Source: an uncultured Bacillota bacterium
GTDB lineage: Bacteria > Bacillota_I > Bacilli_A > RFN20 > CAG-826
Assembly: GCA_949287245.1 (NCBI GenBank)
Contig: CASEFL010000001.1
Coordinates: 138,973-202,972 of the forward strand
DNA length: 64,000 nt
Direction: 5' to 3'
Shown here piece by piece: positions 7,623 through 37,248 of the stretch. The notes beneath the pieces are model-generated. The model ran no database searches, was not told the DNA's origin, and saw only the letters and a program-made list of their open reading frames with translations. Positions within the stretch are counted from its first letter, which is position 1, and every line of letters starts with the position of its first letter. The position numbers and the translations under genes are program-made.

Positions 7623-8360
7623 TTATTTTTTCTCTTTTAAGGAAGAATAAAGATAACTAAATATCTTAATCTTTTTTCCAAGAGTATCTTCAAAATAAAG
7701 GACTAAATCTTTGAAAAACGCAAGAGAATCAGCAAAGGGTAATGATTGACCTTTCCATGAAGCGAGAGGAACTTTAAAGGCAAAATACGCAACTTCCAAG
7801 TACTTTTGTCCTTGTCTTGGAGAGGTACTATTTTCCTTTTCGCAAAGAAAACCTCCATCTTTATAGGATAAAGAAACAATGTTGTGTTTTTCTTTACAAA
7901 AAAGACAATGATCAACAACAAGGCCATAGCCAAGTAAGGATAAAATTTTCGCAAAAAACACAGGAAGAATAGAAGTTGGTGAATTTTTTTCTTTCAATAA
8001 ATTTACCGTTTCTTTCACTAGTGGATAAAGGACATCTCCTTCTATACCTGGCGAAATAATCCATAAAACTTCAGCTAAGAAGCGATAAGAAAGCAAATAC
8101 ATTAATTCTCCTTGGGGAAAGAAAAGCAAGTTTCCTTCTTGAAAACGGTACCCGCCTGCTCTTCCTTCTTTAAGAACAATTTCGCTTGCGGCCATTTCCT
8201 CAAAATTTGCTTGATTGTGACCGCCTTTTTTTCTTATCCCAGAAGCTTTAAATGAAAGATACCCTTCTTGGGTAAGAAATGTCGCAATATAGGAAGTTTC
8301 CTTATAAGGAACAGCCTTAAGACAAAAACCTTTTGTTTTAACGATCTCTCCTCTTGCCAT
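7623..8360 (-). CDS. recO: DNA repair protein RecO
   Basis: 245-aa ORF with an OB-fold N-terminus and a C-terminal Cys zinc-binding cluster (CLFC...C). It lies immediately downstream of era. Confidence 0.85.
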   Translation of the reverse strand: MARGEIVKTKGFCLKAVPYKETSYIATFLTQEGYLSFKASGIRKKGGHNQANFEEMAASEIVLKEGRAGGYRFQEGNLLFFPQGELMYLLSYRFLAEVLWIISPGIEGDVLYPLVKETVNLLKEKNSPTSILPVFFAKILSLLGYGLVVDHCLFCKEKHNIVSLSYKDGGFLCEKENSTSPRQGQKYLEVAYFAFKVPLASWKGQSLPFADSLAFFKDLVLYFEDTLGKKIKIFSYLYSSLKEKK

Positions 8361-9219
8361 ACCCTAATTTACCTAGCATTCGCACATCATCCCGCCAATG
8401 AGGAGAAGCAACAACAAAGCAATGCAATCGCACATGTTTAGAAAAACGTGAACGCAAATCCTTTTCTGCATTAGAGCGAATTTTTTCGATCATTTGGCCG
8501 TTTTTCCCGATAACAATTCCTTTTTGAGAGTCTCTTTCAACATAAATATGAACTTTTGCTTCAATTTCTTTCTCATTTTCCTTACAAGAATCGACATGAA
8601 CAGCGGCTTGATGAGGGACCTCGTTATGAAGAAGCAAAAGCATTTTTTCGCGAATACTTTCTTGAATGAAATAGGAAGTATCTTTATCGGTTGTTGTTCC
8701 TTCTTCATAAAAGGGCAAAGATTCTGGTAGCTGTTTTTCCACCCAAAGGCGCGCATCTTTTAAGCCGAAATTGTTCTTAGCGCTCATCTCAAGATAAGGA
8801 ATTCCAAATAAAGAGGGGATTTTTTCTTTAATTTTTTCCATTTCTGGAGCCGTCATTAAATCAATCTTATTAAGCAATAACAAAATAGGAGCATCACTTT
8901 TTATACGGCGAAAAGCTTTTGCCGCTTCCTCTAAATTTTCATGGACATCTACAAGAAAAAGAATTGCATCTACTCCAGATAAAGCACGCCGTGCTTTCCG
9001 CATCATCTCTTTTTCTAATGAGTTACTTCCTTCCATTAAACCAGGAGTATCAATAAAAGCAATTTGTGCACCACTATCTTCATAAATTCCTAAAATATCT
9101 TCTCTAGTCGTTTGCGCTTTTGGGGTAACAATAGCCACTTTTTTGGATAAAAGAGCATTAAGAAATGTACTTTTTCCTGCATTAGGAAGGCCTAAGATTG
9201 CAACCGTTCCCGCTTTCAT
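8338..9219 (-). CDS. era: GTPase Era
   Basis: 293-aa ORF with G1 'GLPNAGKST' and G3 'DTPG' motifs, an NKID motif and a C-terminal KH domain. It overlaps cdd and recO, indicating an operon. Confidence 0.95.
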   Translation of the reverse strand: MKAGTVAILGLPNAGKSTFLNALLSKKVAIVTPKAQTTREDILGIYEDSGAQIAFIDTPGLMEGSNSLEKEMMRKARRALSGVDAILFLVDVHENLEEAAKAFRRIKSDAPILLLLNKIDLMTAPEMEKIKEKIPSLFGIPYLEMSAKNNFGLKDARLWVEKQLPESLPFYEEGTTTDKDTSYFIQESIREKMLLLLHNEVPHQAAVHVDSCKENEKEIEAKVHIYVERDSQKGIVIGKNGQMIEKIRSNAEKDLRSRFSKHVRLHCFVVASPHWRDDVRMLGKLGYGKRRDR

Positions 9220-9617
9220 TGCATATCCTCTTCTTCAAAAGCATAAGGGAGAAGTTCTTCTATTGTTGTTTGCTGAATATCTCCGCATAAATTTGCTAAA
9301 TATATAGGAGCGCGCAAAGGGAAAAGTTCCGATAATACCTGACGACAAGCCCCACAAGGAGAAACTGGGCGTTTACAGTCAGCAACAATTGCTAAAGCAA
9401 GAAAATCTTCCTTCTTTTTTCCTTCCATTAAGGCATGATATATCGCATTTCTTTCCGCACACATGCATAAAGGATAACTTGCATTTTCCACATTTGCTCC
9501 ATAATAAATAGAACCATCGCTGCATAAAAGAGCAGCCCCGACAGCAAAATGACTATAAGGAGAATAAGACAGTTTTCTTGCGCTTATTGCTTCTTCAATT
9601 AATTGTTTCGTTTCCAT
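9216..9617 (-). CDS. cdd: Cytidine deaminase
   Basis: 133-aa ORF with the zinc-binding motifs 'CAERNAI' and 'PCGACRQ'. Confidence 0.9.
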   Translation of the reverse strand: METKQLIEEAISARKLSYSPYSHFAVGAALLCSDGSIYYGANVENASYPLCMCAERNAIYHALMEGKKKEDFLALAIVADCKRPVSPCGACRQVLSELFPLRAPIYLANLCGDIQQTTIEELLPYAFEEEDMQ

Positions 9618-10077
9618 AATCTCCCCCTAAAATTTCCAAAATTTGATTTTGTAAAGAAAACATTTCTTTTGCCTCTTCATCATTCATGTGATCATAACCT
9701 AACAAATGAAGAAGTCCGTGTGCAAAAAGAAAACAAAGTTCCCTGCCTAAGGAATTACCAATTTCTTCTGCTTGCTTAATTGCCCGAGGAATGCATATAT
9801 AAATCTCACCTAAAATTTGCAAAGCATCTTCCTGGTAACTAAAAGAAACAGGATTTTCCCCATCGTTATAGGCAAAGGAAATCACATCCGTCACTGAATC
9901 CTTATTTCGATAATCACGGTTTAATTGTTGAATCGTATCTTCATCAACAAAGGAAACATCTATCTCATAAGAAGACGGGACGTGTAGTAAAGAAAAAGTA
10001 TATGCAGCTATTTTTTCATAATAAGGAAGGAAGCTTTCATATTTTGGAAAGAATTCAGCATTCAGTTCTATGTTCAT
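9595..10077 (-). CDS. ybeY: rRNA maturation endoribonuclease YbeY
   Basis: 160-aa ORF with the conserved metal-binding 'HGLLHLLGYDH' motif. Confidence 0.9.
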   Translation of the reverse strand: MNIELNAEFFPKYESFLPYYEKIAAYTFSLLHVPSSYEIDVSFVDEDTIQQLNRDYRNKDSVTDVISFAYNDGENPVSFSYQEDALQILGEIYICIPRAIKQAEEIGNSLGRELCFLFAHGLLHLLGYDHMNDEEAKEMFSLQNQILEILGGDYGNETIN

Positions 10078-10102: not shown

Positions 10103-11275
10103 CTAAGAAAGCGAGAGAAAGCGTTCAAAAAAAGCATCCGCTAATGCCTGTCTTTTCTTTTTCTGCAAAAAATATTGTAAAAAACTACGAAACGTCTTGC
10201 TCAGAATAAAAAGAGATAAAAAAGCGCTAATAAAACCATAAAAGGAACTTCCTTGTTCATTGCCCCATAAGGCAAGAAAAGATAGACCAAATAAAGGAAG
10301 GAGAGAAGACAAATCAAATACCCGCAAGGAAAAAGCAAGTTTTGATGCGGTTTTGCTTAATTCTGCCCCTTTTTTATATGCGAAAGGTTCTTCTAACATT
10401 TTGGCCTCTTTCCTTTCTAGTTTTTCTTTCTCTTTTGTAAAGAAATGTTCAAGGGGAAAATAACAAATTTCTAAAAGCAAGATAAAACAGGAAGCAAGAA
10501 AATAACCAAAGCCAAAAAAAGATACATAGGTAAAAAGACAAAGGGAAACAAGCAACGAGGCAAAAGAAGAGATGGGGCCAAGGAATACGCTTCCCTTATA
10601 ACGTTGGAACAAAAAGTAGTCTTCGCTATTTCCTCTTTCCGGAACAAGAAATAAATGATCTTTTTCAAAACGATTTAAGAAAAGAAAAATCGCTCCTTCC
10701 CTTAATAGAAAGAGGAGAAAAGCGGTTAAAAAGAAGGAAAATGCATATAAAAGACGTGGATCTTCCTCTAGAAAATAAAAACCAATAAGAAAAAACACCA
10801 ATTCAAGAAACAACAAAGAAAGGAGCAGTGGTAGAGTAAAATAATCAATTAATTTCGGTCTTTTTGGAGGAATTTCTTTTCGATCAAAATACCCCTCACC
10901 AAAAATTAACGACCATTTTTTCATCAATTCTTTCCCTTTTATCCAGTATTTTCCTTTTGCAGGATCATCAAGATAAAAATATTCCTTTCTCTTTTTTAAT
11001 AAAACGACAAGATGTCCATCTTTTCCTTCATTTAACAATAAAAGCAAAGGAAAACGTTTTGCTTCCTCTAAACAATTTGCATAACAAGAACGTTTCCAAA
11101 TAAGATTTACTCCAGCCTGTTTGGCTAAAAAACTCAGCTCTTGTAAATCATAAGCACCTTCATGATCCCTTTTTAAATAACGCCATCCTTTTTGTTTAGT
11201 AAAATAAATAAGAAAGGAACGTGTTGCGGCGTATCCACAACTATCGGGTTTTGCTTGATAAACTGTACCATTCAT
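10103..11275 (-). CDS. Peptidase C39 (double-glycine leader peptidase) domain fused to a ~6-TM membrane domain; no ABC ATPase domain
   Basis: The N-terminal ~130 aa carry the C39 motifs Q-x5-C ('YQAKPDSCGYAA'), His ('DGHLVVLL') and 'DDPAKGK'. The following ~240 aa form hydrophobic TM helices. No nucleotide-binding domain is present in the ORF or in neighbouring genes. Confidence 0.7.
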   Translation of the reverse strand: MNGTVYQAKPDSCGYAATRSFLIYFTKQKGWRYLKRDHEGAYDLQELSFLAKQAGVNLIWKRSCYANCLEEAKRFPLLLLLNEGKDGHLVVLLKKRKEYFYLDDPAKGKYWIKGKELMKKWSLIFGEGYFDRKEIPPKRPKLIDYFTLPLLLSLLFLELVFFLIGFYFLEEDPRLLYAFSFFLTAFLLFLLREGAIFLFLNRFEKDHLFLVPERGNSEDYFLFQRYKGSVFLGPISSFASLLVSLCLFTYVSFFGFGYFLASCFILLLEICYFPLEHFFTKEKEKLERKEAKMLEEPFAYKKGAELSKTASKLAFSLRVFDLSSLLPLFGLSFLALWGNEQGSSFYGFISAFLSLFILSKTFRSFLQYFLQKKKRQALADAFFERFLSLS

Positions 11276-11310
11276 ACTCTTATATAGTTCTTATTTACCA
11301 AGAAGTGCCC

Positions 11311-11339
11311 TTAAAAAAGAAAAAGCGCCATAAGGCGCT
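11311..11339 (-). terminator. Rho-independent terminator downstream of rpsU
   Basis: Hairpin AGCGCC-ATAA-GGCGCT (11324-11339) followed on the minus-sense RNA by a U-run (plus-strand A-run 11311-11323). Confidence 0.6.
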
Positions 11340-11357: not shown

Positions 11358-11543
11358 TTACCACTTTTTACGGCGGGCCATTTCACTTTTTTGCTTCCGG
11401 CGAAGGGCGGTTTTGAGATAAAACTCACGTTTTTTCATTTCCATGACAACACCAGATTTATTCACTGCACGTTTGAAACGACGAATGCCTTCATCAACAT
11501 TTTCATCTTGACGAATTGTTACTTTAATTGCCATTCTCTTCAC
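11358..11543 (-). CDS. rpsU: 30S ribosomal protein S21
   Basis: 61-aa protein 'MAIKVTIRQDENVDEGIRRFKRAVNKSGV...ARRKKW', typical of S21. A GGAGGTG ribosome-binding site precedes it. Confidence 0.95.
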   Translation of the reverse strand: MKRMAIKVTIRQDENVDEGIRRFKRAVNKSGVVMEMKKREFYLKTALRRKQKSEMARRKKW

Positions 11544-11830: not shown

Positions 11831-14257
11831 CTATTCCTCATCCATAAAATTTTTCTTTGAACAAAAATGCTTAATCGCTTTAAAGAAGTGGCCGTTTGCA
11901 ACATCACAAAATCCTCGCGCAAAATGGTAAGGGAACCGATTTTGTGCACACATGCTCATCGAATTTAAGGTGTTATTTTCTAAAATACGATAAAGAAAGA
12001 TAGCCCCTTTTATTTGATTATCCCGTTGAACACCTAAAGGCAGTTTTTTCGCTTTTCGATATTGCTTTTTTGCCATACTCAAAACAGCCAAACGCAAAAT
12101 ATTTCCAAAGAATGAATACTTAAAATCATGAAGTTTCGAATCCAGTGTATAAGGTTTAATTTTTCTTGAAGTAGGAATTTTTATAGGAAGTTCTTCTTCC
12201 AACATAGAAGGAGTAATTTCTCTAATCCTACCAAAGTTATATAAAGCAAGAAGGTTTTGTGAATAAGGAGAAGAAACCTCTTCCCCTTTTATTGTGATTT
12301 CTTCTTCATAACTTGTATCTTCCGCGTGATGAGCAAAAATAATCTTATATTTCCCGTTTAATAAAAGAAAACGATGTTCTTTAAGATGATAGGAGGCAAG
12401 GTCATTAATCGGAAAAGAAAGAGAAACAAACTTTTCTTCCTTTGGCTTTAAATAAACCTTACAAAAAGCTCGCAAATCGCGCTTCGATTGATAGATTTTA
12501 TCATTTGGGGAGGAAGAATATATTTGAACAACATCCGCCCCAGGATATTCACCGATATTTTTAACTTTTAAGAAAAGAAGTATTTTATCCTCTTTTTGCT
12601 CAAGAGAAAAATCAGACCATAAAAACTTGCTATAACTTAATCCATAGCCAAAAGGATATCGCGTAGGAATGTTAGCATTAAGATAGTAACGATACCCAAC
12701 AAGAATTCCTTCTTGATACACTTCATTTGGCGACAAACTATAGGTCTGATGACAAACAACATCACGATAAGAAAGTGGCCAACTTTCCGATAAATGTCCT
12801 GAGGGATTTGCTTTCCCAAAAAGCAAGTTATAGCATGCTTCTCCCCCTCCTTCTCCTGGAAGAAACATCGATAAAAGCGCATCAATTCCATCAATAAAAG
12901 GAAGTTCTACTGGGGAACCACCAAAAAGAACAAAAATAATCTTCTTCCCCAAACGAATAAGTTCATTAAGTAGTTTTATTTGATTCATAGGAAGAGACAT
13001 GTTTTCACGGTCTACGCCCTCACTTTCAATAAGATCAGTTAATCCCCCAAAGAAAAGAATGGGCTCGGTAGCTTCTTTTGCGGCATTTATCGCTTCAGAA
13101 AAGAGGGTATCCTCCCTTTCTCCTGTTTCTTGATAACCGCGACAATAAGCATAACAAACACCCTTTTCATCAAAGGCATCTTTTGGAGTCTTTAAAAAAT
13201 AGGGAAGAATCATGGATGAACCGGCCCCTTGATAACGCATCTTTTGAAATAAGTCCCCAATAACAAGATATTTTTTCTTTTCATTTAAAGGTAAAAGATA
13301 AGATTCATTTTTTAATAAAACAGCAGAATCAGTCGCAACTTTTACCGATAAATCGTAATGTTTTTTAAAATCACAATCATCAGGATAGTCTTTTTGGTAC
13401 TTTTGAATCATTGATAATAGACGATAACAAGCTTCATCAAGTACTTCTTCTTTTAGAAATCCATGATTAAGAGAATATTGAAGCTCTTCTTGGCAGACTA
13501 AGGTATCTCCTGGCATTTCAAGATGGCAGCCTGCTTCCAAACTTTTTTTGCGGCTATGCATGGCGCCCCAATCAGTCATTACTAAACCGTTAAAACCCCA
13601 TTTTTCTTGTAAAATTTCTCTTAAAAGATAGGAATTTTCACTGCAATAGACACCATTTACTTTGTTATATGCAGACATTACTGCGGCAGGATGTCCAATT
13701 TCAATCGCCTTTTGAAAAGAACGAAGATAAAGCTCATGCATGGTTCGCTCATCAACGATAGAATCGCCATTATTTCGGAAATTTTCTGAATTATTTAAGG
13801 CAAAATGCTTGATACATGCGGCAACGCCTTTCCTTTCAATGCCTAAAATCTCATTTCCTGCCATTAAGCCAGATAAATAAGGATCTTCGCTAAAGTACTC
13901 AAAGTTCCTTCCACCAAGGGGAGCGCGTTTAATATTTGCCCCTGGCCCTAAAACAACATGGATTTTGAAATGATGAGCTTCTTCCCCAATTGCCTGCCCA
14001 ATGGAATAAGCATTTTCTACATTCCAAGAAGAGGCTACAGTAACAGCAGTAGGAAAGCATGTTGCAGGAAGTGAGGAGGTTACCCCATTATCCCCCGTTC
14101 CCTTTTGCACCCGTAATCCGTGAGGACCATCTGACATCCTTAAAGAAGAGATTCCGTACTTTTCAAAAGACACGGTATACATAAAATTTGTCCCTGCAAC
14201 AAAACGAATTTTGTCTTCCTTAGGAAGGAGGAAAGTTTTTGAGTCTCTTGCATTCAT
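11831..14257 (-). CDS. Glycoside hydrolase family 3 beta-glucosidase (BglX-like, extended C-terminus)
   Basis: 808-aa ORF with GH3 N-terminal motifs ('MSDGPHGLR', 'KHFALNNSE') and a C-terminal fibronectin-like region. Confidence 0.9.
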   Translation of the reverse strand: MNARDSKTFLLPKEDKIRFVAGTNFMYTVSFEKYGISSLRMSDGPHGLRVQKGTGDNGVTSSLPATCFPTAVTVASSWNVENAYSIGQAIGEEAHHFKIHVVLGPGANIKRAPLGGRNFEYFSEDPYLSGLMAGNEILGIERKGVAACIKHFALNNSENFRNNGDSIVDERTMHELYLRSFQKAIEIGHPAAVMSAYNKVNGVYCSENSYLLREILQEKWGFNGLVMTDWGAMHSRKKSLEAGCHLEMPGDTLVCQEELQYSLNHGFLKEEVLDEACYRLLSMIQKYQKDYPDDCDFKKHYDLSVKVATDSAVLLKNESYLLPLNEKKKYLVIGDLFQKMRYQGAGSSMILPYFLKTPKDAFDEKGVCYAYCRGYQETGEREDTLFSEAINAAKEATEPILFFGGLTDLIESEGVDRENMSLPMNQIKLLNELIRLGKKIIFVLFGGSPVELPFIDGIDALLSMFLPGEGGGEACYNLLFGKANPSGHLSESWPLSYRDVVCHQTYSLSPNEVYQEGILVGYRYYLNANIPTRYPFGYGLSYSKFLWSDFSLEQKEDKILLFLKVKNIGEYPGADVVQIYSSSPNDKIYQSKRDLRAFCKVYLKPKEEKFVSLSFPINDLASYHLKEHRFLLLNGKYKIIFAHHAEDTSYEEEITIKGEEVSSPYSQNLLALYNFGRIREITPSMLEEELPIKIPTSRKIKPYTLDSKLHDFKYSFFGNILRLAVLSMAKKQYRKAKKLPLGVQRDNQIKGAIFLYRILENNTLNSMSMCAQNRFPYHFARGFCDVANGHFFKAIKHFCSKKNFMDEE

Positions 14258-14505
14258 CGCGTTTTCATTTTATATAACAATTAAAAATTTACCTATCGAA
14301 TTTTAAGAAAAGAAATATTTAATCAATTTTCTTAATTATTGCCTAAGAAAAGAATCGTTTCCTATTTCCCTAATTCCCATCAGACAATCTATTTTTACTT
14401 TTGAGACTAAAATATTTTTAAGAATATGAAAAGAATACAAAACTATATACCCATATAAAGATGGGAAAATATAACAAAATAATGAAAAAATTGTCTTTTT
14501 ATGAA

Positions 14506-15339
14506 CTAAAAACAGCAAATGATACCGCCTTCTAAGGAATAAAAGGCCGCTAAACCACGATTTTCGACAACCTTAATTTCTTTAAAAGGATAACGTTCTT
14601 GAATCGCATTTTTTAATGTTAAGGCTAAATCTGGTGCTTCGGTATGAGAAATGATGCACATTCGTTGTTCGAAATCGGAACCCATTTTGCCAATATTAAC
14701 AACAAGGCGTTTGAAAACTCCTTGAATCGTGCGTACTTTTTCTTTGATTTTAATTTCCCCTCCATCCCCATAACAAAGAGGCTTAATCCCAATTAATTGG
14801 GCGATTAAGGCGGTCACCCGGTTCATACGTCCATTTTTGATTAAATTATCAAAACGATTTAAAACAAATAATAAATTTAAAGTATCACGATATCCAAAAA
14901 GACAAGACTTTAACGTTTCAAAATCCGTTCCTTTTTGAATCTCTTCAACCGCTTTTAAGACAAGTTGTTCCATCGTTCCGCAAACAAGTTTTGAATCAAT
15001 CACAAGGACATTATCAGGAAATGCATAGGCTTCTTTTGCTAAACATGCACTTTGATAAGATCCACTTAGTTTTGATGAAATGGTAATGAGGATGTAATAT
15101 TCCGCATCTTTCATTTCCTTTAAATAATCACCAGGCGAAGGACAGGCAGTAGTAGCTTTTCCAGGAAAAGAAGAGAGTTCTTTTAGCATTTTTCCTACAT
15201 CAAGACTTGCATCATCGATATATTCTTTTCCATTAAAGCGGATAGTTAAGGGTGCAACAGCAAAACCAATATCGGAATATCCTGATAAATAAGTAGGAAG
15301 TAAATTTGAGGAGGAATCAACGATAATTTTATATTTCAT
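14506..15339 (-). CDS. DegV-family fatty-acid-binding protein
   Basis: The DegV fold signature is present (start at 'MKYKIIVDSSSNL'). The ORF extends further upstream, but the internal Met is the start. Confidence 0.85.
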   Translation of the reverse strand: MKYKIIVDSSSNLLPTYLSGYSDIGFAVAPLTIRFNGKEYIDDASLDVGKMLKELSSFPGKATTACPSPGDYLKEMKDAEYYILITISSKLSGSYQSACLAKEAYAFPDNVLVIDSKLVCGTMEQLVLKAVEEIQKGTDFETLKSCLFGYRDTLNLLFVLNRFDNLIKNGRMNRVTALIAQLIGIKPLCYGDGGEIKIKEKVRTIQGVFKRLVVNIGKMGSDFEQRMCIISHTEAPDLALTLKNAIQERYPFKEIKVVENRGLAAFYSLEGGIICCF

Positions 15340-15487
15340 ATGCAATTTCCATTTTAAAGATAAATCCGAAAACAACACTAGACGAAAAGAGAAAAAAGGC
15401 AAGCAAAATTAATGAAAAACTTGAAATATTTCGCAAAGTTAAAATGGTTAAGATTTTGTCCCGTTTTTCTTTTTAAAAGAGGAAAAA

Positions 15488-27599: not shown

Positions 27600-29090
27600 T
27601 TATTCTTGTCCTTTCATCACAGGGGTATATACAAATTTGTTTTTAATTTGACTTTTCTTATAGTAGCCACGTGCCGCAAGCTTATCCATAGAAGTCCGTG
27701 CCGTTTCATAAGAACAACGGGCAAAGCGTTTAAACTGTTGAATCGTATAATATCTTCCTTCAATTAGATGCGAAGCAAGGAAACTTGCTTGTTTTCGTGA
27801 CAAAGAAGGGTCTGTTTCCATTAAATATTGTGTGTATTCCCTTGTTTCTTTCTCGGTTAAGCGCTCCGTTTCAAAAGGCATAAGATTTTGCCCACTAGGG
27901 AAACGAGGAGGAGAGGGAGGAACTTTTCTTTTTTCTTCCATAGGCTGAATTGAAGAATTAGGAATTGTTTCCTCTTCTTTAACTTCCTCAGCAAAAATCG
28001 GCTTAGGTTCATCAAGAGAAATATCGCTCTCCTCTTCCAAAATGGAATAGTTTTCCTTTTCGGGAGAAGATACATTTTCTTCCCTTTGCTCCTCTTCATA
28101 AACCTCTTTTTCCGCATCTTTTTGAGCTTGCAAGAAATCGTTCCAGCAGCGGCGCATCCGACTCATGAAAGTATCAAACAAATAGGTCAAATCCCCTTTT
28201 CGTCGTACTTCTAAAATTAAAAAACGATAATCAGTGCGACGTAATTCTGTTAAAAAGGTTTCAATAGGAAGTAAATACGCCCCAGGGCCAAACTCGGAAG
28301 ACAAAATCTTTTTGGCAACCATTAAAGCAACAACTTCATTATGACTGTCAAAAGGTTTAAACCAATCGATAAAAATTAATGCGGCAAGAGCCTTAACAAT
28401 TAACGATACTTGGTCATTTCCTTGAATTGCATTAAAAAGTTGCGACATGGAATCAGCAATTCTTTCTGCTGGGCAATATCCATAATCGGGCGACTGTTGG
28501 AAACTCCAACGGAGTGCCTCTTTATCAAAATCAGAACTTCGATAAAAAGAAATAAGTTCTTGTGTCCCCTCAATCGCCTCTAATACTTGAGCCATAAAAT
28601 CTTCATTTGGCAAATCGCTTTCACCTTCGCGGAAAAGTTTTTCTAAAAGATCGTGATAGCGCAATAAAGGATCGTGAAATTCTTCATGATTACGATACGT
28701 TCCGTTTAAAACCGCTTTAATCATTAACGGACTCATTTCGCATTCTTCAAAAATATTAATCCCCGCCAAACAAGATTCATAAATCGCACGACGAACGTAT
28801 TCCCCGCGCCTTCCATTTAATGATTCTAATTGTTTCGCAAAATTAGAAATAAGCGATTCAAAAGATTTCAGCCGCTCAAGAATCGTGCTCGTGCCAGTGA
28901 AATAAACTGGTTCGCGGTTTAATGTTTTAAGAGGCGATAACAAAACTTCATGTTCTTTTCGATACTCTAAAACAAGTTTCCAAATCGCCGAAGCACCAAT
29001 CGTCCCAACTTCACGAGAGAATAAAGTTTCCGTTAAATAGTTATCATCAGTGCAACGATAAACAATGGGTTCATACTTATCATATTTCAT
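27600..29090 (-). CDS. Fic-fold protein with degenerate catalytic motif, an acidic/Pro-rich disordered linker and a C-terminal winged-helix domain (hypothetical)
   Basis: The core region '...PAERIADSMSQLFNAI...VSLIVKALAALIFIDWFKPFDSHNEVVALMVAKKIL' matches the Fic helix pattern around HPFx[DE]GNGR. Here that motif reads KPFDSHNEV, so His, Gly-Gly and Arg are lost. The C-terminal ~60 aa look like a wHTH. Confidence 0.45.
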   Translation of the reverse strand: MKYDKYEPIVYRCTDDNYLTETLFSREVGTIGASAIWKLVLEYRKEHEVLLSPLKTLNREPVYFTGTSTILERLKSFESLISNFAKQLESLNGRRGEYVRRAIYESCLAGINIFEECEMSPLMIKAVLNGTYRNHEEFHDPLLRYHDLLEKLFREGESDLPNEDFMAQVLEAIEGTQELISFYRSSDFDKEALRWSFQQSPDYGYCPAERIADSMSQLFNAIQGNDQVSLIVKALAALIFIDWFKPFDSHNEVVALMVAKKILSSEFGPGAYLLPIETFLTELRRTDYRFLILEVRRKGDLTYLFDTFMSRMRRCWNDFLQAQKDAEKEVYEEEQREENVSSPEKENYSILEEESDISLDEPKPIFAEEVKEEETIPNSSIQPMEEKRKVPPSPPRFPSGQNLMPFETERLTEKETREYTQYLMETDPSLSRKQASFLASHLIEGRYYTIQQFKRFARCSYETARTSMDKLAARGYYKKSQIKNKFVYTPVMKGQE

Positions 29091-35271: not shown

Positions 35272-37248
35272 ATGAAAAAACGAAATCAAATGGCTGTCGC
35301 CCGTTATGTAGAATCGATTATAAAAGAAATTGAAAATATTCCCCAAACCATGGAGTCTTTATATCTTTTTTTAAAAGCTCATTATTCACAGGAAATATGC
35401 GCATACTTTTTCGATGAGGATGGAAAAAGAAAAAAACAAAGTTATCACGAGTTATTTAGACAAGCCGAATATCTTGGCTCGCATATGAATTCTATCTTTT
35501 CAAAAATAGAATCAACACAACCAATTGCTTTAAAATATCGCAACTCTCCCGAATGGCCTGCATTGTTTTTTGGAATTTTAATGAGCAATCATCCTGTGCT
35601 CCTTTTGGATGCAAAACTACCTGAGGAGAATACAAATAATTTGCTAAAACAAGCAAACGCAGGATCAATCATTTGTAACGAAAGCGAAACCTATCTTGTT
35701 CCCTCTTACCGTCTAAGCGATTTAAAAAAATCGACACCCAAAGAGCCAGTTACTTGGAACGATGAGATTATGTTTTGCTCTTCAGGCACTACAGGTGCAG
35801 CGAAAATTATGGTTTTTGACGGGAAGGCAATTTTTGGACAAATTATCTCGGCAAAAATGGTTGCAAATGAAACAAGCGACATTATCTATGAAGGATCATT
35901 ACGCAACTTTGCTATGATTCCTTTTCATCATATCTTCGGCTTTGTTGCCGTATTTTTATGGTATTCAACCTTAGGAAAAACACTTGTTTATCCTGCAAGT
36001 AATGCAACGAAAGATTTACTTTATGCTATAAAAAAAGGTGAATGCGATCACATTTATAGCGTGCCACTTTTATGGGATGGAATTGCCCAAACTGTTGAGA
36101 GAACTTTCTCACTAAAAAAACCAAAAATCCAGAACTTATTTCATAAAATGATTTCCTATAATTTAGGAGAAATATCTAAAAAAGAAGCAGGTATTGCATC
36201 GTTTTCTTTCTTTCAAAACATAGTTAGAAATCGAATTTTAGGAAATAAACCGGTTTTTTGTATTTCTGGTGGTGGGTATTTATCAAAAGAAACATTGCGC
36301 TTAATTAATGGCCTTGGCTATCCCCTTTATAACGGATATGGAATGACAGAAATTGGAGTTACTTCTGTAGAACTTTCTCCTGATGTAAAGACAAGATTGC
36401 TTGGCTCGATAGGAAAACCATTCTTTGGGGTAAATTATCAACTGCACGAAGGAGAACTGGAAGTTCAATGCCGTTCCATGCATATAGCCTCAATTGTTAA
36501 TGGTGTAAGAGAATCCTTTCCGCGAGATCAATATCTGAAAACAGGCGATATTGCTGAAAAAATTGACGATCGGTGGTACATTCGCGGAAGAAAAAAAGAT
36601 GTCATTATTAATAATGACGGGGAAAATATATACCCTGACGAAATTGAATATTATTTCAAGGAAATTTCGCTTATAAAAAATTGCGTCGCCTTCGGGGTTA
36701 CAGAAGGTCATAAAGAGCATATTGTTCTTATTATTGAATTAACGCAAAGCCCGCGGGAGGAAGTTTTATTCAAAGTAAAAGAAGAATTAACAAACATTAA
36801 TAACAAGTTAAGTTCTTCAAAAAAAGTATCCGAATTCGCGATTTCTTCTAGCAGTTTGCCTTTAGCGAATTCAATGAAAATTAAACGAGGTGAAGTGAAA
36901 AAACTTTATCTAGAAAACCCTGATTCATTCCTTTATTTTGACAAAAAAAGACGCATAAATTATGAAGAAAACATATCTTTTGATGGTTATGACCATGAGG
37001 AAGTAAATGAAATTTTAAATGAAATTCGACGCACTTTCTCTGATAACCTCTCCTTACCGATTGATCAAATTTCTGACGATGCAATCTGGGATAGTGATTT
37101 AGGGGGAGATTCGATGTCTTATATAAGCATGATTGCTGATTTAGATGAACATTTCCAAGTGGATATTCCCGAGGATAAATACGGCAAAGTCGGATCTGTT
37201 AAGGGTTTTACTAAACTTATTCTAGAATTACGTCATGGGAAGAAATAA
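35272..37248 (+). CDS. Standalone adenylation (AMP-binding) – peptidyl/acyl carrier protein didomain
   Basis: 658-aa ORF with A-domain motifs ('SSGTTGAAKIMV', 'YNGYGMTE', 'YLKTGD', 'GRKKDVI'). The C-terminal ~80 aa carry the carrier-protein phosphopantetheine site 'DLGGDSMSYISM'. Confidence 0.75.
   Translation: MKKRNQMAVARYVESIIKEIENIPQTMESLYLFLKAHYSQEICAYFFDEDGKRKKQSYHELFRQAEYLGSHMNSIFSKIESTQPIALKYRNSPEWPALFFGILMSNHPVLLLDAKLPEENTNNLLKQANAGSIICNESETYLVPSYRLSDLKKSTPKEPVTWNDEIMFCSSGTTGAAKIMVFDGKAIFGQIISAKMVANETSDIIYEGSLRNFAMIPFHHIFGFVAVFLWYSTLGKTLVYPASNATKDLLYAIKKGECDHIYSVPLLWDGIAQTVERTFSLKKPKIQNLFHKMISYNLGEISKKEAGIASFSFFQNIVRNRILGNKPVFCISGGGYLSKETLRLINGLGYPLYNGYGMTEIGVTSVELSPDVKTRLLGSIGKPFFGVNYQLHEGELEVQCRSMHIASIVNGVRESFPRDQYLKTGDIAEKIDDRWYIRGRKKDVIINNDGENIYPDEIEYYFKEISLIKNCVAFGVTEGHKEHIVLIIELTQSPREEVLFKVKEELTNINNKLSSSKKVSEFAISSSSLPLANSMKIKRGEVKKLYLENPDSFLYFDKKRRINYEENISFDGYDHEEVNEILNEIRRTFSDNLSLPIDQISDDAIWDSDLGGDSMSYISMIADLDEHFQVDIPEDKYGKVGSVKGFTKLILELRHGKK

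Follow-up and report, generated by a model that had tools for sequence, protein, structure and literature searches.

A probable NBD-less derivative of peptidase-containing ABC transporters encoded upstream of ybeY in uncultured low-GC Bacilli

In textbooks, the coupling of ATP hydrolysis to leader cleavage and peptide export is exemplified by peptidase-containing ABC transporters (PCATs). What, then, is a protein that carries the protease and the membrane domain of such a transporter and ends before the ATPase? The stretch of DNA analyzed here (i.e., the window; 64 kb) encodes such a protein in a 390-aa ORF with an ATG start (10103 to 11275, minus strand; exactly the coordinates given by an earlier, sequence-only reading), which consists of a C39 peptidase domain and a six-helix ABC-exporter-type membrane domain without a nucleotide-binding domain (NBD). 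We conclude with high confidence that the gene encodes a naturally NBD-less PCAT derivative, in which a C39 protease is docked on a six-helix type-IV exporter domain. The combination of a C39 domain and a PCAT-type membrane domain without an ABC ATPase had been proposed by the sequence-only reading, and HMM scans, profile-profile alignments, structure prediction, and fold searches all bear it out. For its function, the best explanation overall (i.e., that the protein cleaves its cargo and perhaps passes it across the membrane without ATP) has, in our estimation, an even chance of being correct.

The N-terminal part of the protein (residues 1 to 130, predicted to be cytoplasmic; 10886 to 11275, minus strand) is a C39 double-glycine peptidase domain with the papain-like C39 fold. 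A Pfam scan matched PF03412 (Peptidase_C39) to residues 4 to 122 (39.4 bits; E = 6.4e-10), well above the gathering cutoff of 22 bits, and the same model matched all 45 tested representatives of the family described below (best E = 1e-24). The oxyanion-hole Gln7 of the Q-x5-C motif (QAKPDSC; codon at 11255 to 11257) is kept in 40 of the 45 representatives. The catalytic nucleophile Cys13 (11237 to 11239) is Cys in 43, i.e., in every sequence covering this column, the other two being N-terminally truncated. The catalytic His88 (in DGHLVV; 11012 to 11014) and the third triad member Asp104 (in the D-P motif of DDPAKG; 10964 to 10966) are invariant (45/45; all codons on the minus strand), and Pro105 is conserved at 96%. 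Conservation in the family as a whole peaks at these catalytic residues. The motifs noticed in the earlier reading are real, catalytic ones, and the conserved residues predict an active-looking protease domain. An N-terminal domain other than C39, which would have refuted the earlier reading, is thereby contradicted by the HMM result. In a PDB sequence search, only the C39 part of the protein was matched, with the LahT150 structure (6mpz) among the top matches. The LahT150 construct and FapD are C39 proteins without an ABC-type membrane domain, whereas the family has one. The inactive C39-like domain of HlyB has no catalytic Cys and belongs to a complete ABC transporter, while the family keeps Cys13 and has no NBD.

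Behind the C39 domain, hydropathy analysis revealed six hydrophobic helices, which the AlphaFold model places at residues 147 to 171, 175 to 210, 217 to 252, 256 to 295, 300 to 335, and 345 to 370. They make up a membrane domain (residues 141 to 370; 10166 to 10855, minus strand) with the type-IV ABC exporter fold and are followed by a C-terminal amphipathic helix (residues 372 to 388; 89% conservation of Phe382) and the stop codon (10103 to 10165, minus strand). The earlier description of about six TM helices and then a stop was accurate apart from this one short additional helix. The pLDDT of the model was 94.5, which we take to reflect strong co-variation. The Pfam ABC_membrane HMM (PF00664), which the earlier reading had named for identifying this domain, did not match the protein; despite this silence, profile-profile and fold comparisons identify an ABC-exporter membrane domain. 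The full family profile was aligned by hhalign with PCATs at Prob 99.7 (family positions 3 to 405 on PCAT positions 5 to 465 of 716). A TM-only profile of 45 sequences was aligned with the PCAT membrane domain at Prob 87 to 90 (E = 2 to 4e-6), compared with E values of 0.25 to 0.28 for the reversed control and 0.64 for the NBD control. A significant, control-validated TM-only alignment was obtained only with this 45-sequence profile; a 6-sequence profile gave a nonsignificant result (Prob 1.1%; E = 0.048). Structure prediction and fold search further indicate that the fold and the way in which it docks with the C39 domain match those of transport-competent PCAT1.

PCATs (i.e., PCAT1 of Clostridium [Acetivibrio] thermocellum, ComA, LahT, and CvaB; "AMS/PCAT") and the family share an N-terminal C39 domain with the Gln, Cys, His, and Asp residues and a six-helix type-IV exporter membrane domain, and their profiles are collinear up to the junction between the membrane domain and the NBD. 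However, PCATs are approximately 700 aa long with an NBD and coupling loops, whereas the members of the family are approximately 390 aa long, have no NBD, and have these loops trimmed to short turns. In the AlphaFold model, the ICLs are reduced to tight 6- and 4-residue turns (residues 211 to 216 and 296 to 299), and the hhalign gaps coincide exactly with the ICL1 (the PCAT "LPxxFFexrkxGdIxSRf" region) and ICL2 coupling regions. Judging from the alignment and the secondary structure, the NBD-engaging coupling helices of PCATs appear to be absent. Glu290 (10406 to 10408), at the cytoplasmic end of TM4 just ahead of the ICL2 turn, is the sole residue outside the C39 domain that is invariant among the 45 representatives. 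Position 204 (10664 to 10666), in an F-D/E motif near the cytoplasmic tip of TM2, is acidic in all 45 (Asp in 96% of the family and Glu in the window protein), and position 227 (10595 to 10597; all three codons on the minus strand), in the cytoplasmic part of TM3, is Lys in 96%. The two conserved acids are predicted to lie in cytoplasmic extensions of the helices and not in the bilayer.

The protein stops where the NBD of a PCAT would begin (approximately PCAT position 465 in the alignment), and its ORF contains neither a Walker A nor an ABC signature motif. Since the stop codon lies 25 bp from the start of ybeY, a frameshifted NBD would not fit in between, the finding that the earlier reading had said would count against it. 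Every ORF of the 64-kb window lacks the ABC signature motif, and no ABC ATPase gene was found there; the only ORFs with a Walker A motif are Era, a 916-aa FtsK, and a chance match in GlyRS. The absence of an NBD from the ORF and its neighbors, as first read from the sequence, consequently holds for the window as a whole. One alternative is a split ABC transporter, in which this protein is the peptidase/permease half and the ATPase is made from a gene of its own in another part of the genome. Such a separation is common in ABC systems (e.g., the YddA relatives, whose membrane domain and NBD are encoded by different genes of one operon according to the SbmA study [PMC13316013]), and our inspection covered only 64 kb of the source genome. 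However, no NBD gene lies beside the C39-TM gene in 13 looked-up family loci and approximately 26 survey loci (mostly 5 to 10 kb of flank), the window itself is devoid of ABC ATPases, both NBD-coupling loops are cut to turns of four to six residues, and the C terminus has gained a conserved helix of its own (Phe382). We consider a split transporter improbable.

An exhaustive HMMER search with a TM-only profile against 1.84 billion representatives identified 48 family proteins. Nearly all are 385 to 420 aa long and match over approximately residues 130 to 395; none is near 700 aa, and all 48 are too short to accommodate an NBD. The exhaustive search was needed to reveal the family, as word-indexed homologue searches returned only 7 full-length relatives and fragments; a search with a C39-only profile returned four fragments and no PCATs. 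The dN/dS ratios ranged from 0.04 to 0.27 across both domains (0.04 to 0.19 for the C39 domain and 0.11 to 0.14 for the membrane domain in unsaturated pairs; 0.27 and 0.22, respectively, in another pair). Judged from these sequence comparisons, the NBD-less architecture is a family trait under purifying selection in both domains, and the gene encodes a conserved working protein in a group of uncultured gut-type low-GC Bacilli. We regard the window protein, with the same strong confidence as for its identity as a whole, as a founding-type member of a small, fast-evolving, selectively maintained family. A literature search found no paper on NBD-less PCAT-like proteins. They are currently unnamed in annotation and recognizable only as "C39 domain" proteins, and their membrane domain is invisible to Pfam.

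These data also bear on whether the gene is a decaying remnant, i.e., a functionless PCAT that was cut short recently by a deletion or only looks so through an assembly artifact. Only the missing NBD and a weak Shine-Dalgarno sequence (aagagt ahead of the ATG) speak for it. The architecture of approximately 390 aa recurs in 48 representative clusters and in dozens of independent assemblies, and the invariant catalytic residues, the low dN/dS ratios, and the high pLDDT likewise contradict decay. A remnant is effectively refuted by the family-wide architecture, the conserved catalytic residues, and the dN/dS ratios, and we assign it next to no probability. The earlier suggestion of a "degenerate PCAT" is right as to an origin from a PCAT and wrong as to degeneration, since the architecture is that of a conserved family under purifying selection. 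A plasmid tblastn search with the 390-aa protein gave no match, and there is therefore no sign that the C39-TM gene is plasmid-borne; an Rfam scan of the 64-kb window gave no matches.

On the minus strand, the genes are ordered rpsU, the C39-TM gene, ybeY, cdd, era, recO, glyS, and dnaG. The gene for ribosomal protein S21 (rpsU; 11358 to 11534; PF01165, E = 7e-15) is always the upstream neighbor or a near neighbor in the family loci. Directly 3' of rpsU, a consensus scan located a terminator-like GC hairpin followed by a T-run (AGCGCC-TTAT-GGCGCT; 11314 to 11339, minus strand), and equivalents that differ in sequence were present in all six family loci examined. The co-oriented ybeY (9595 to 10077, minus strand; PF02130, E = 4e-43) begins 25 bp downstream of the C39-TM gene, a gap without a terminator-like site (10 to 64 bp in seven family loci), and is probably co-transcribed with it. 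The reading frames of cdd, era, and recO (7623 to 9617, minus strand; assigned by Pfam matches) overlap or abut, and promoter-like sites appear only after recO (7573 to 7511). The placement within an rpsU-ybeY-era operon, as originally described, is correct in gene order; because the terminator-like hairpin separates rpsU, the C39-TM gene is better called the first gene of the ybeY-era unit. In the 13 looked-up family loci (L001 to L015), it is the gene immediately upstream of ybeY, being one ORF away in one subclade, and the same arrangement was found in approximately 26 of the 80 loci of a ybeY-anchored metagenome survey. Upstream of ybeY, the survey also found ORFs with a Walker A motif (approximately 330 aa) and ORFs with an HDxGK motif (approximately 720 aa); in canonical Firmicutes (e.g., in the B. 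subtilis gene order), PhoH-like and PgpH-like genes fill this slot.

The position at the head of ybeY-cdd-era-recO is strictly kept across members that are only 17 to 25% identical, which would suit a ribosome-biogenesis accessory, i.e., a protease whose target would be a ribosomal protein or an assembly protein, much as L27 is trimmed by the Prp protease in Firmicutes. However, the operon includes cdd and recO and is therefore of mixed function, so that guilt by association is weak, and other genes occupy the slot in canonical Firmicutes. The fold and the docking geometry are, moreover, those of a peptide exporter. S21 was rejected as a substrate on the basis of its sequence, which has no N-terminal extension, leader, or Gly-Gly site. 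We regard such a ribosomal role as very improbable.

In low-GC genomes that are more distant, seven loci of the survey have in the slot upstream of ybeY a full PCAT with C39, membrane, and NBD domains (656 to 699 aa stop to stop; 643 to 692 aa from the first start), in the same order as in the NBD-less family (i.e., X-ybeY-cdd-era-recO...glyS-dnaG). Their Walker A and B motifs are intact, and their signature is atypical (LSxGQ/E). The NCBIfam model of a mycoplasma PCAT ("Mbov_0121 family"; NF045998) was the top match of all five ybeY-linked full PCATs scanned (L029, L042, L047, L050, and L093) and the model most often matched in the NBD-less family (43 of 45 members). On the window protein, it scored 44.4 bits over residues 44 to 166 only, below the curated cutoff of 500 for a whole-protein equivalog. 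The family most likely arose by NBD loss from a PCAT occupying the ybeY slot in related lineages. In-situ loss rests on position and the shared best NCBIfam model, because the profiles show no special closeness, and the shared model could partly reflect low-GC composition. In hhalign comparisons, the family was not closer to the ybeY-linked PCATs (Prob 6 to 10%) than to generic PCATs (90%), and C39 HMM scores for the two groups were mixed; a special sequence affinity to the ybeY-linked PCATs is unsupported by either measure.

The "Mbov_0121 family" (including MG_390, or "sunT," of M. genitalium) keeps the NBD that the NBD-less family does not have. In M. genitalium, MG_390 presumably lies near ybeY and era in the order MG387 (era)-MG388 (ybeY)-MG389-MG390. 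A putative transporter for peptide secretion, MG_390 shares its transcript with a hypothetical gene downstream of it (PMC4446450, PMC6105099). In mollicute-like bacteria, the full PCATs linked to ybeY are a positional counterpart of the NBD-less family, and this relationship may help find the cargo of the mycoplasma transporters, among them MG_390, a protein with an influence on recombination-dependent transformation.

A scan of the 64-kb window for GG-leader motifs yielded no credible double-glycine-leader ORF, and no such ORF was found beside family members. Neither the window nor the flanks of family members contained accessory or immunity genes. The plasmid PCATs taken for comparison do have adjoining cargo, accessory, and immunity genes; unlike PCATs, the family has a membrane domain that escapes PF00664 and lies in a housekeeping operon. 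The earlier judgment that this is not a bacteriocin locus was correct for the rpsU/ybeY/era region in which the gene lies. The family shares the lack of neighboring cargo genes with the "Mbov_0121 family" and the ybeY-linked full PCATs; the loci of the latter gave nothing credible in a GG-leader scan. In one subclade (L003, L008, and L009), a 63-aa ORF with the sequence "...EQLxYIINSVGG|KDPSPES..." lies upstream of the C39-TM gene. As a general cargo, this ORF was rejected: its hydrophobic register misfits the leader consensus (-4, -7, -12, -15), it has no Pfam match, and neither the window nor most family members have it.

How might such a protein work? We tentatively propose, at slightly less than even probability and by analogy with PCAT1, stepwise cleavage and export. 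The protein would be expected to form a homodimer, as PCAT1 and all type-IV exporters do. A cargo encoded elsewhere in the genome and bearing an N-terminal double-glycine-type leader would bind the C39 domain while the membrane domain faces inward, and the leader would be cut off by Cys13, His88, and Asp104. In PCAT1, leader cleavage occurs in the nucleotide-free inward-facing state. Alternating access of the membrane domain would then carry the cargo across without ATP, probably driven by the proton gradient, for which SbmA/BacA and MsbA lacking its NBD are the models, or with the cargo moving downhill. A cytoplasmic gate or a docking surface for the C39 domain could be formed by D/E204, K227, and E290, which lie at the cytoplasmic ends of the helices.

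ABC-exporter membrane domains that work without an NBD have precedents. LmrA-MD and MsbA-MD are engineered NBD-less ABC exporters, i.e., laboratory truncations that have small-molecule substrates and no peptidase, whereas the family is natural and maintained by selection. MsbA without its NBD still carries out delta-pH-dependent efflux (PMC4979069). The documented natural case is SbmA/BacA (SLiPT), whose ancestor was a full ABC transporter that lost both the NBD and the coupling helices (PMC13316013). Like the family, SbmA/BacA has a type-IV-like membrane domain without these parts, and its substrates are peptides, as would be those of the family. However, SbmA/BacA are proton-driven peptide importers without a protease domain, and their origin (YddA-type, in Gram-negatives) is independent of that of the family (PCAT-type, in Bacilli). 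Each SbmA protomer contains eight TM helices (including an extra TM0a/TM0b pair), whereas the family has six after a soluble C39 domain. The SbmA/BacA sequence families were not matched in Pfam or NCBIfam scans, and the nearest sequence relatives are PCATs. The cavity of SbmA is lined by a "glutamate ladder" (E193, E203, E269, E276, E287, and E378), whereas E290 and D/E204 are the only conserved acids in the membrane domain of the family; because there is no such ladder and the conserved acids lie in cytoplasmic extensions, a proton-coupling path is not evident.

The lack of an evident ladder and of any encoded energy source would suit the main rival, the "membrane protease with a different role" that the sequence-only reading had already suggested as possible. 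Here, the protein would be a membrane-anchored maturation protease only; its membrane domain would be an anchor, a dimerization scaffold, or a substrate platform, and nothing would cross. The concentration of conservation on the catalytic residues is consistent with this reading, as is the existence of stand-alone C39 proteases that only process their substrates (LahT150, the top-match structure noted above, and FapD, whose model is matched by 29 of the 45 family members). However, the whole six-helix domain is under purifying selection (omega of approximately 0.11 to 0.22), its fold and C39 docking geometry match those of transport-competent PCAT1, and a simple anchor needs neither 250 residues nor conserved tip residues (D/E204, K227, and E290). 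We regard a processing-only protease as a serious but rather unlikely possibility. The broader proposal that the family is a secondary-active or otherwise ATP-independent peptide processing-and-export machine, and the second independent NBD-less case after SbmA/BacA, now in the export direction, is likewise speculative and perhaps unlikely; in such a machine, the cutting of the leader by the C39 domain would be linked to translocation, for which the proton gradient or cleavage and unfolding as such, and not ATP, would supply the drive.

In the NBD-less PCAT derivatives, protease and translocation domain persist and dock on each other as in PCAT1, while the ATPase and the coupling helices are gone. 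This leaves two options: the membrane domain of a peptide exporter can function without ATP, or it now serves another purpose. In SbmA/BacA, an ABC-type membrane domain has turned into an importer driven by protons, and the family would be an independent natural experiment on the exporter side, with a built-in protease as a convenient read-out in a protein of 390 aa that has a high-confidence model, catalytic residues, and three conserved charged residues. If the export reading is true, an ABC exporter would have become an NBD-less exporter in Gram-positive-type Bacilli with its cargo-recognizing protease still attached. Given its constant position at the head of the ybeY-era-recO operon, the family would then be a housekeeping route by which mollicute-like gut bacteria with reduced genomes secrete one or more peptides for signaling or for the envelope.

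The gene at 10103..11275 (-), taken from the ORF listing, encodes a 390-aa protein (the C39-TM protein) and lies between rpsU upstream (11358..11534, -) and ybeY (9595..10077, -), cdd (9216..9617, -), era (8338..9219, -), and recO (7623..8360, -) downstream, with glyS and dnaG further downstream on the same strand; these neighbors were all confirmed with Pfam. Residues 4 to 122 match PF03412 (Peptidase_C39; E = 6.4e-10; 39.4 bits; gathering cut-off, 22), the sole Pfam match of the protein; PF00664 was not detected. The motifs quoted in a sequence-only reading are the catalytic ones (i.e., Gln7-x5-Cys13, His88, and Asp104-Pro105). A hydropathy scan identified six hydrophobic segments between residues 141 and 370, and the positively charged loops on the cytoplasmic side place the C39 domain in the cytoplasm. 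The 25 bp between the stop codon and the ybeY start leave no room for a nucleotide-binding domain (NBD). Within the 64-kb window, a Walker A motif occurs only in Era, in a 916-aa FtsK, and, by chance, in GlyRS, and the ABC signature motif is absent from every ORF. The sequence-only reading, which had described a C39 domain with about six transmembrane (TM) segments and no NBD in an rpsU/ybeY/era setting, is therefore correct in every particular.

Word-indexed protein searches returned only seven full-length relatives (24 to 54% identical; 354 to 415 aa). In an exhaustive search, a profile of the membrane part (residues ~128 to 390, i.e., with C39 excluded) was compared with 1.84 billion representative proteins and matched 48 at E < 1e-3. 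Nearly all of these are 385 to 420 aa long and align over residues ~130 to 395, and none of the 48 has the length of a peptidase-containing ABC transporter (PCAT; ~700 aa). PF03412 was found in all 45 aligned members (best E, 1e-24), among which His88 and Asp104 are invariant, Gln7 is kept in 40, and Cys13 is kept in every sequence covering that column; judged by its residues, the active site appears intact. Beyond the protease domain, Glu290 never varies, all members have an acidic residue at position 204 (Asp in 96%), and 96% have Lys227. Nei-Gojobori dN/dS values for orthologs from related MAGs (pairs with unsaturated dS) were 0.04 to 0.19 for the C39 part and 0.11 to 0.14 for the membrane part, while another ortholog pair gave 0.27 and 0.22, respectively. 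These low values indicate that both halves are maintained by selection and exclude the reading of the protein as a decaying remnant.

By sequence alone, the membrane part had no match in Pfam, NCBIfam, or PDB, and a 6-sequence family profile gave no significant alignment to PCATs. The full 45-sequence profile matched a profile of five bona fide plasmid PCATs (from Bacillus, Enterococcus mundtii, Rhizobium, E. coli [CvaB], and Pantoea) with Prob 99.7 and E = 2.7e-25, aligning family positions 3 to 405 with PCAT positions 5 to 465 of 716. A TM-only 45-sequence profile matched the PCAT membrane domain (TMD) or the full PCAT (Prob, 87 to 90; E = 2 to 4e-6) over 222 collinear columns from TM2 to the TMD/NBD junction, whereas reversed-profile controls gave E = 0.25 to 0.28 and the PCAT NBD gave E = 0.64. 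The alignment gaps coincide with intracellular loops 1 and 2, from which the NBD-coupling helices of ABC exporters are built. An AlphaFold2 run with 6 sequences was poor; the model from the 45-sequence alignment (pLDDT, 94.5; pTM, 0.88) has predicted cytoplasmic links between the long TM helices of only 6 (211 to 216) and 4 (296 to 299) residues. PCAT1 chains accounted for the best 13 Foldseek matches of this model (E as low as 2e-12), with a best TM-score of 0.63 to substrate-bound inward-facing PCAT1 (6v9z) and 0.52 to the ATP-bound outward-facing form (7t54). The model thus predicts a PCAT-type membrane domain docked to C39 as in inward-facing PCAT1. That an ATPase encoded in trans serves the protein is unlikely, because the coupling loops are trimmed and no NBD gene occurs in any family locus examined.

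The family loci that we fetched (L001 to L015, of which L004 to L007 are from uncultured Bacilli or Firmicutes MAGs) share the order rpsU, C39-TM, ybeY-cdd-era-recO-glyS-dnaG(-sigA), and this order holds for members just 17 to 26% identical to the window protein. The whole region retains the ancestral Firmicutes order dnaK-dnaJ ... rpsU ... ybeY ... era-recO-glyS-dnaG-sigA; in this order, which is that of B. subtilis, the slot before ybeY normally holds phoH and pgpH. In six of the six loci examined, the 79- to 94-bp gap after rpsU contains a GC-rich hairpin, different in sequence in each, followed by a T-run, and the gap between the C39-TM gene and ybeY is 10 to 64 bp. On the basis of these features, the C39-TM gene is best regarded as leading a ybeY-cdd-era-recO unit that follows an rpsU terminator. 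These neighbors could suggest a part in ribosome biogenesis, but the argument is weak, since the operon is functionally mixed in Firmicutes.

The C39-TM start codon in the window (11276-11300, -) and in its closest relative (L004:7975-8000) is preceded by a common ACTATAT-N6-ATG and by no good Shine-Dalgarno sequence, while rpsU has GGAAGGAGG. TATAT, if it serves as a -10 box, would give an almost leaderless mRNA. More distant members do not keep the motif, and L011 has a strong AGGAGG. In the very AT-rich L011 locus, ybeY and cdd were called as one 281-aa product with both Pfam domains (L011:1673-2518), reflecting either fused genes or an overlooked stop or start. The 71-aa ybeY of L013 (3681-3896), compared with 155 aa in the near-identical L012 (4015-4482), is probably due to a frameshift in, or misassembly of, one of the metagenome contigs.

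Insertions seem to recur in the interval from rpsU to the C39-TM gene: L001 has two large secreted proteins there, and L003 and L008 have IS elements together with a PBECR4 gene (L003:5497-7564 and L008:1-1209; PBECR4 domain by Pfam; transposases judged by eye from translations as zinc-ribbon IS1595-like and IS110-like, respectively). The P0006/P0007 subclade (L003, L008, L009, and L031) carries a conserved 63-aa ORF upstream of the C39-TM gene (L003:7706-7897, L008:1366-1557, and L009:1391-1582) and an extra ~350-aa membrane protein between that gene and ybeY (L003:9259-10314 and L008:2919-3971; also in L031), both absent from the window. The small ORF (...EQLxYIINSVGGKDPSPESKxIIHxYxIGEIDFETAES...) has no Pfam match and an internal Gly-Gly that does not match the canonical GG-leader register; its C-terminal half gives the impression of a small antitoxin-type helix pair. 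In the larger protein, a Lys/Pro/Glu-rich linker connects a soluble N-domain to a C-terminal region with multiple TM segments. The two could be partners or cargo specific to this subclade.

Elsewhere in the window, genes for an 808-aa GH3 beta-glucosidase-like protein and a DegV-family protein (11831-15402, -) lie between a GT4 glycosyltransferase/deoC block and rpsU; since deoC (with or without glycosyltransferase genes) directly precedes rpsU in L006, L010, and L014, the pair looks like a lineage-specific insertion. A 496-aa ORF among housekeeping genes (27600-29090, -) matches no Pfam family at E <= 1e-5. The gene at 35272-37248 (+), on a strand that carries very few of the window's genes, encodes a 658-aa protein in which an AMP-binding enzyme is joined to a phosphopantetheine-binding carrier domain; it is either a fusion of the DltA type or an adenylation-carrier protein that stands alone.

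Among NCBIfam PCAT models, NF045998 (the "Mbov_0121 family" of mycoplasmas) matches 43 of the 45 family members (best E, 8e-21), while TIGR03796 matches 29 and TIGR01193 matches 4. The C39-ABC transporter MG_390 of M. genitalium presumably lies near era and ybeY, and we therefore scanned 80 ybeY-anchored metagenome loci, classifying the upstream gene with local HMMs. The NBD-less form was found at 25 loci plus L031, where one ORF intervenes (GlyRS 67 to 78% identical to that of the window), and a full C39+TMD+NBD PCAT at seven (GlyRS, 60 to 64%). Most of the remaining 47 loci (GlyRS, 56 to 66%) have other genes there, encoding, where the sequence permitted a call, a ~720-aa HDxGK (PgpH-like) or a ~330-aa Walker A (PhoH-like) protein. 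Five of the full PCATs are complete (L029:3063-4994, L042:1841-3919, L047:2977-4995, L050:2931-4940, and L093:2912-4966; 656 to 699 aa stop to stop), and two are fragments (L035 and L079). The five share the operon setting of the C39-TM gene, have intact Walker A and B motifs, and carry LSRGQ, FSRGE, LSLGE, LSKGQ, and LSSGQ instead of LSGGQ. The best NCBIfam match of all five is NF045998, over nearly the whole model (191 to 340 bits; cut-off, 500). Upstream of them are lysine-biosynthesis-like genes rather than cargo genes. Some low-GC Bacilli thus have a mycoplasma-type PCAT in the slot before ybeY, where the window's clade has the NBD-less form, and loss of the NBD in place is the parsimonious reading. 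In sequence profiles, the family is no closer to the ybeY-linked PCATs than to generic PCATs, so the two are tied by position and common best model and are not demonstrated sister groups. MG_390 ("sunT"), a putative transporter for peptide secretion, is sigma-20 regulated and cotranscribed with MG_389, and deletion of MG_390 lowers recombination-dependent transformation about 10-fold (PMC4446450, PMC6105099).

The ATPase is absent from this protein, its coupling loops are trimmed, it is selectively maintained, and its location beside ybeY is conserved. By analogy with other type IV exporters, it would dimerize, bind a cargo with a double-glycine-type leader, and cut the leader off; in PCAT1, leader cleavage occurs in the nucleotide-free inward-facing state. 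The cargo would then cross the membrane domain without ATP. Such passage is plausible given that SbmA/BacA are proton-driven peptide transporters with the same fold as this membrane domain (PMC13316013) and that NBD-stripped MsbA retains delta-pH-dependent efflux (PMC4979069). The lack of an SbmA-like glutamate ladder in the family membrane domain counts against a proton-driven version. The sole conserved charged residues of that domain (D/E204, K227, and E290) lie near the predicted cytoplasmic helix tips and may instead form a gate or a protease docking surface. Neither the window nor the surroundings of family members or of the full ybeY-linked PCATs yielded a cargo gene. In the main rival explanation, the membrane domain now serves a maturation protease just as its anchor or scaffold.

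The C39-TM protein is a PCAT by descent and would be PCAT-like in its working. Because it lacks the defining NBD, neither "PCAT" nor "ABC transporter" is a suitable label for it. The protein resembles the SbmA/BacA-like peptide transporters (SLiPTs) in principle, both having an NBD-less type IV TMD; however, SLiPTs have eight helices and a glutamate ladder, whereas this family has six helices, no ladder, and a different ancestry, and is not a member of that group. We found no description of NBD-less PCAT-like proteins in the searchable literature, the family members are unnamed in the source databases, and the membrane domain is covered by none of the Pfam or NCBIfam models. The family poses a clean, testable question, i.e., whether an exporter domain can operate independently of ATP, and is therefore of real interest to the fields of ABC transport and peptide secretion.
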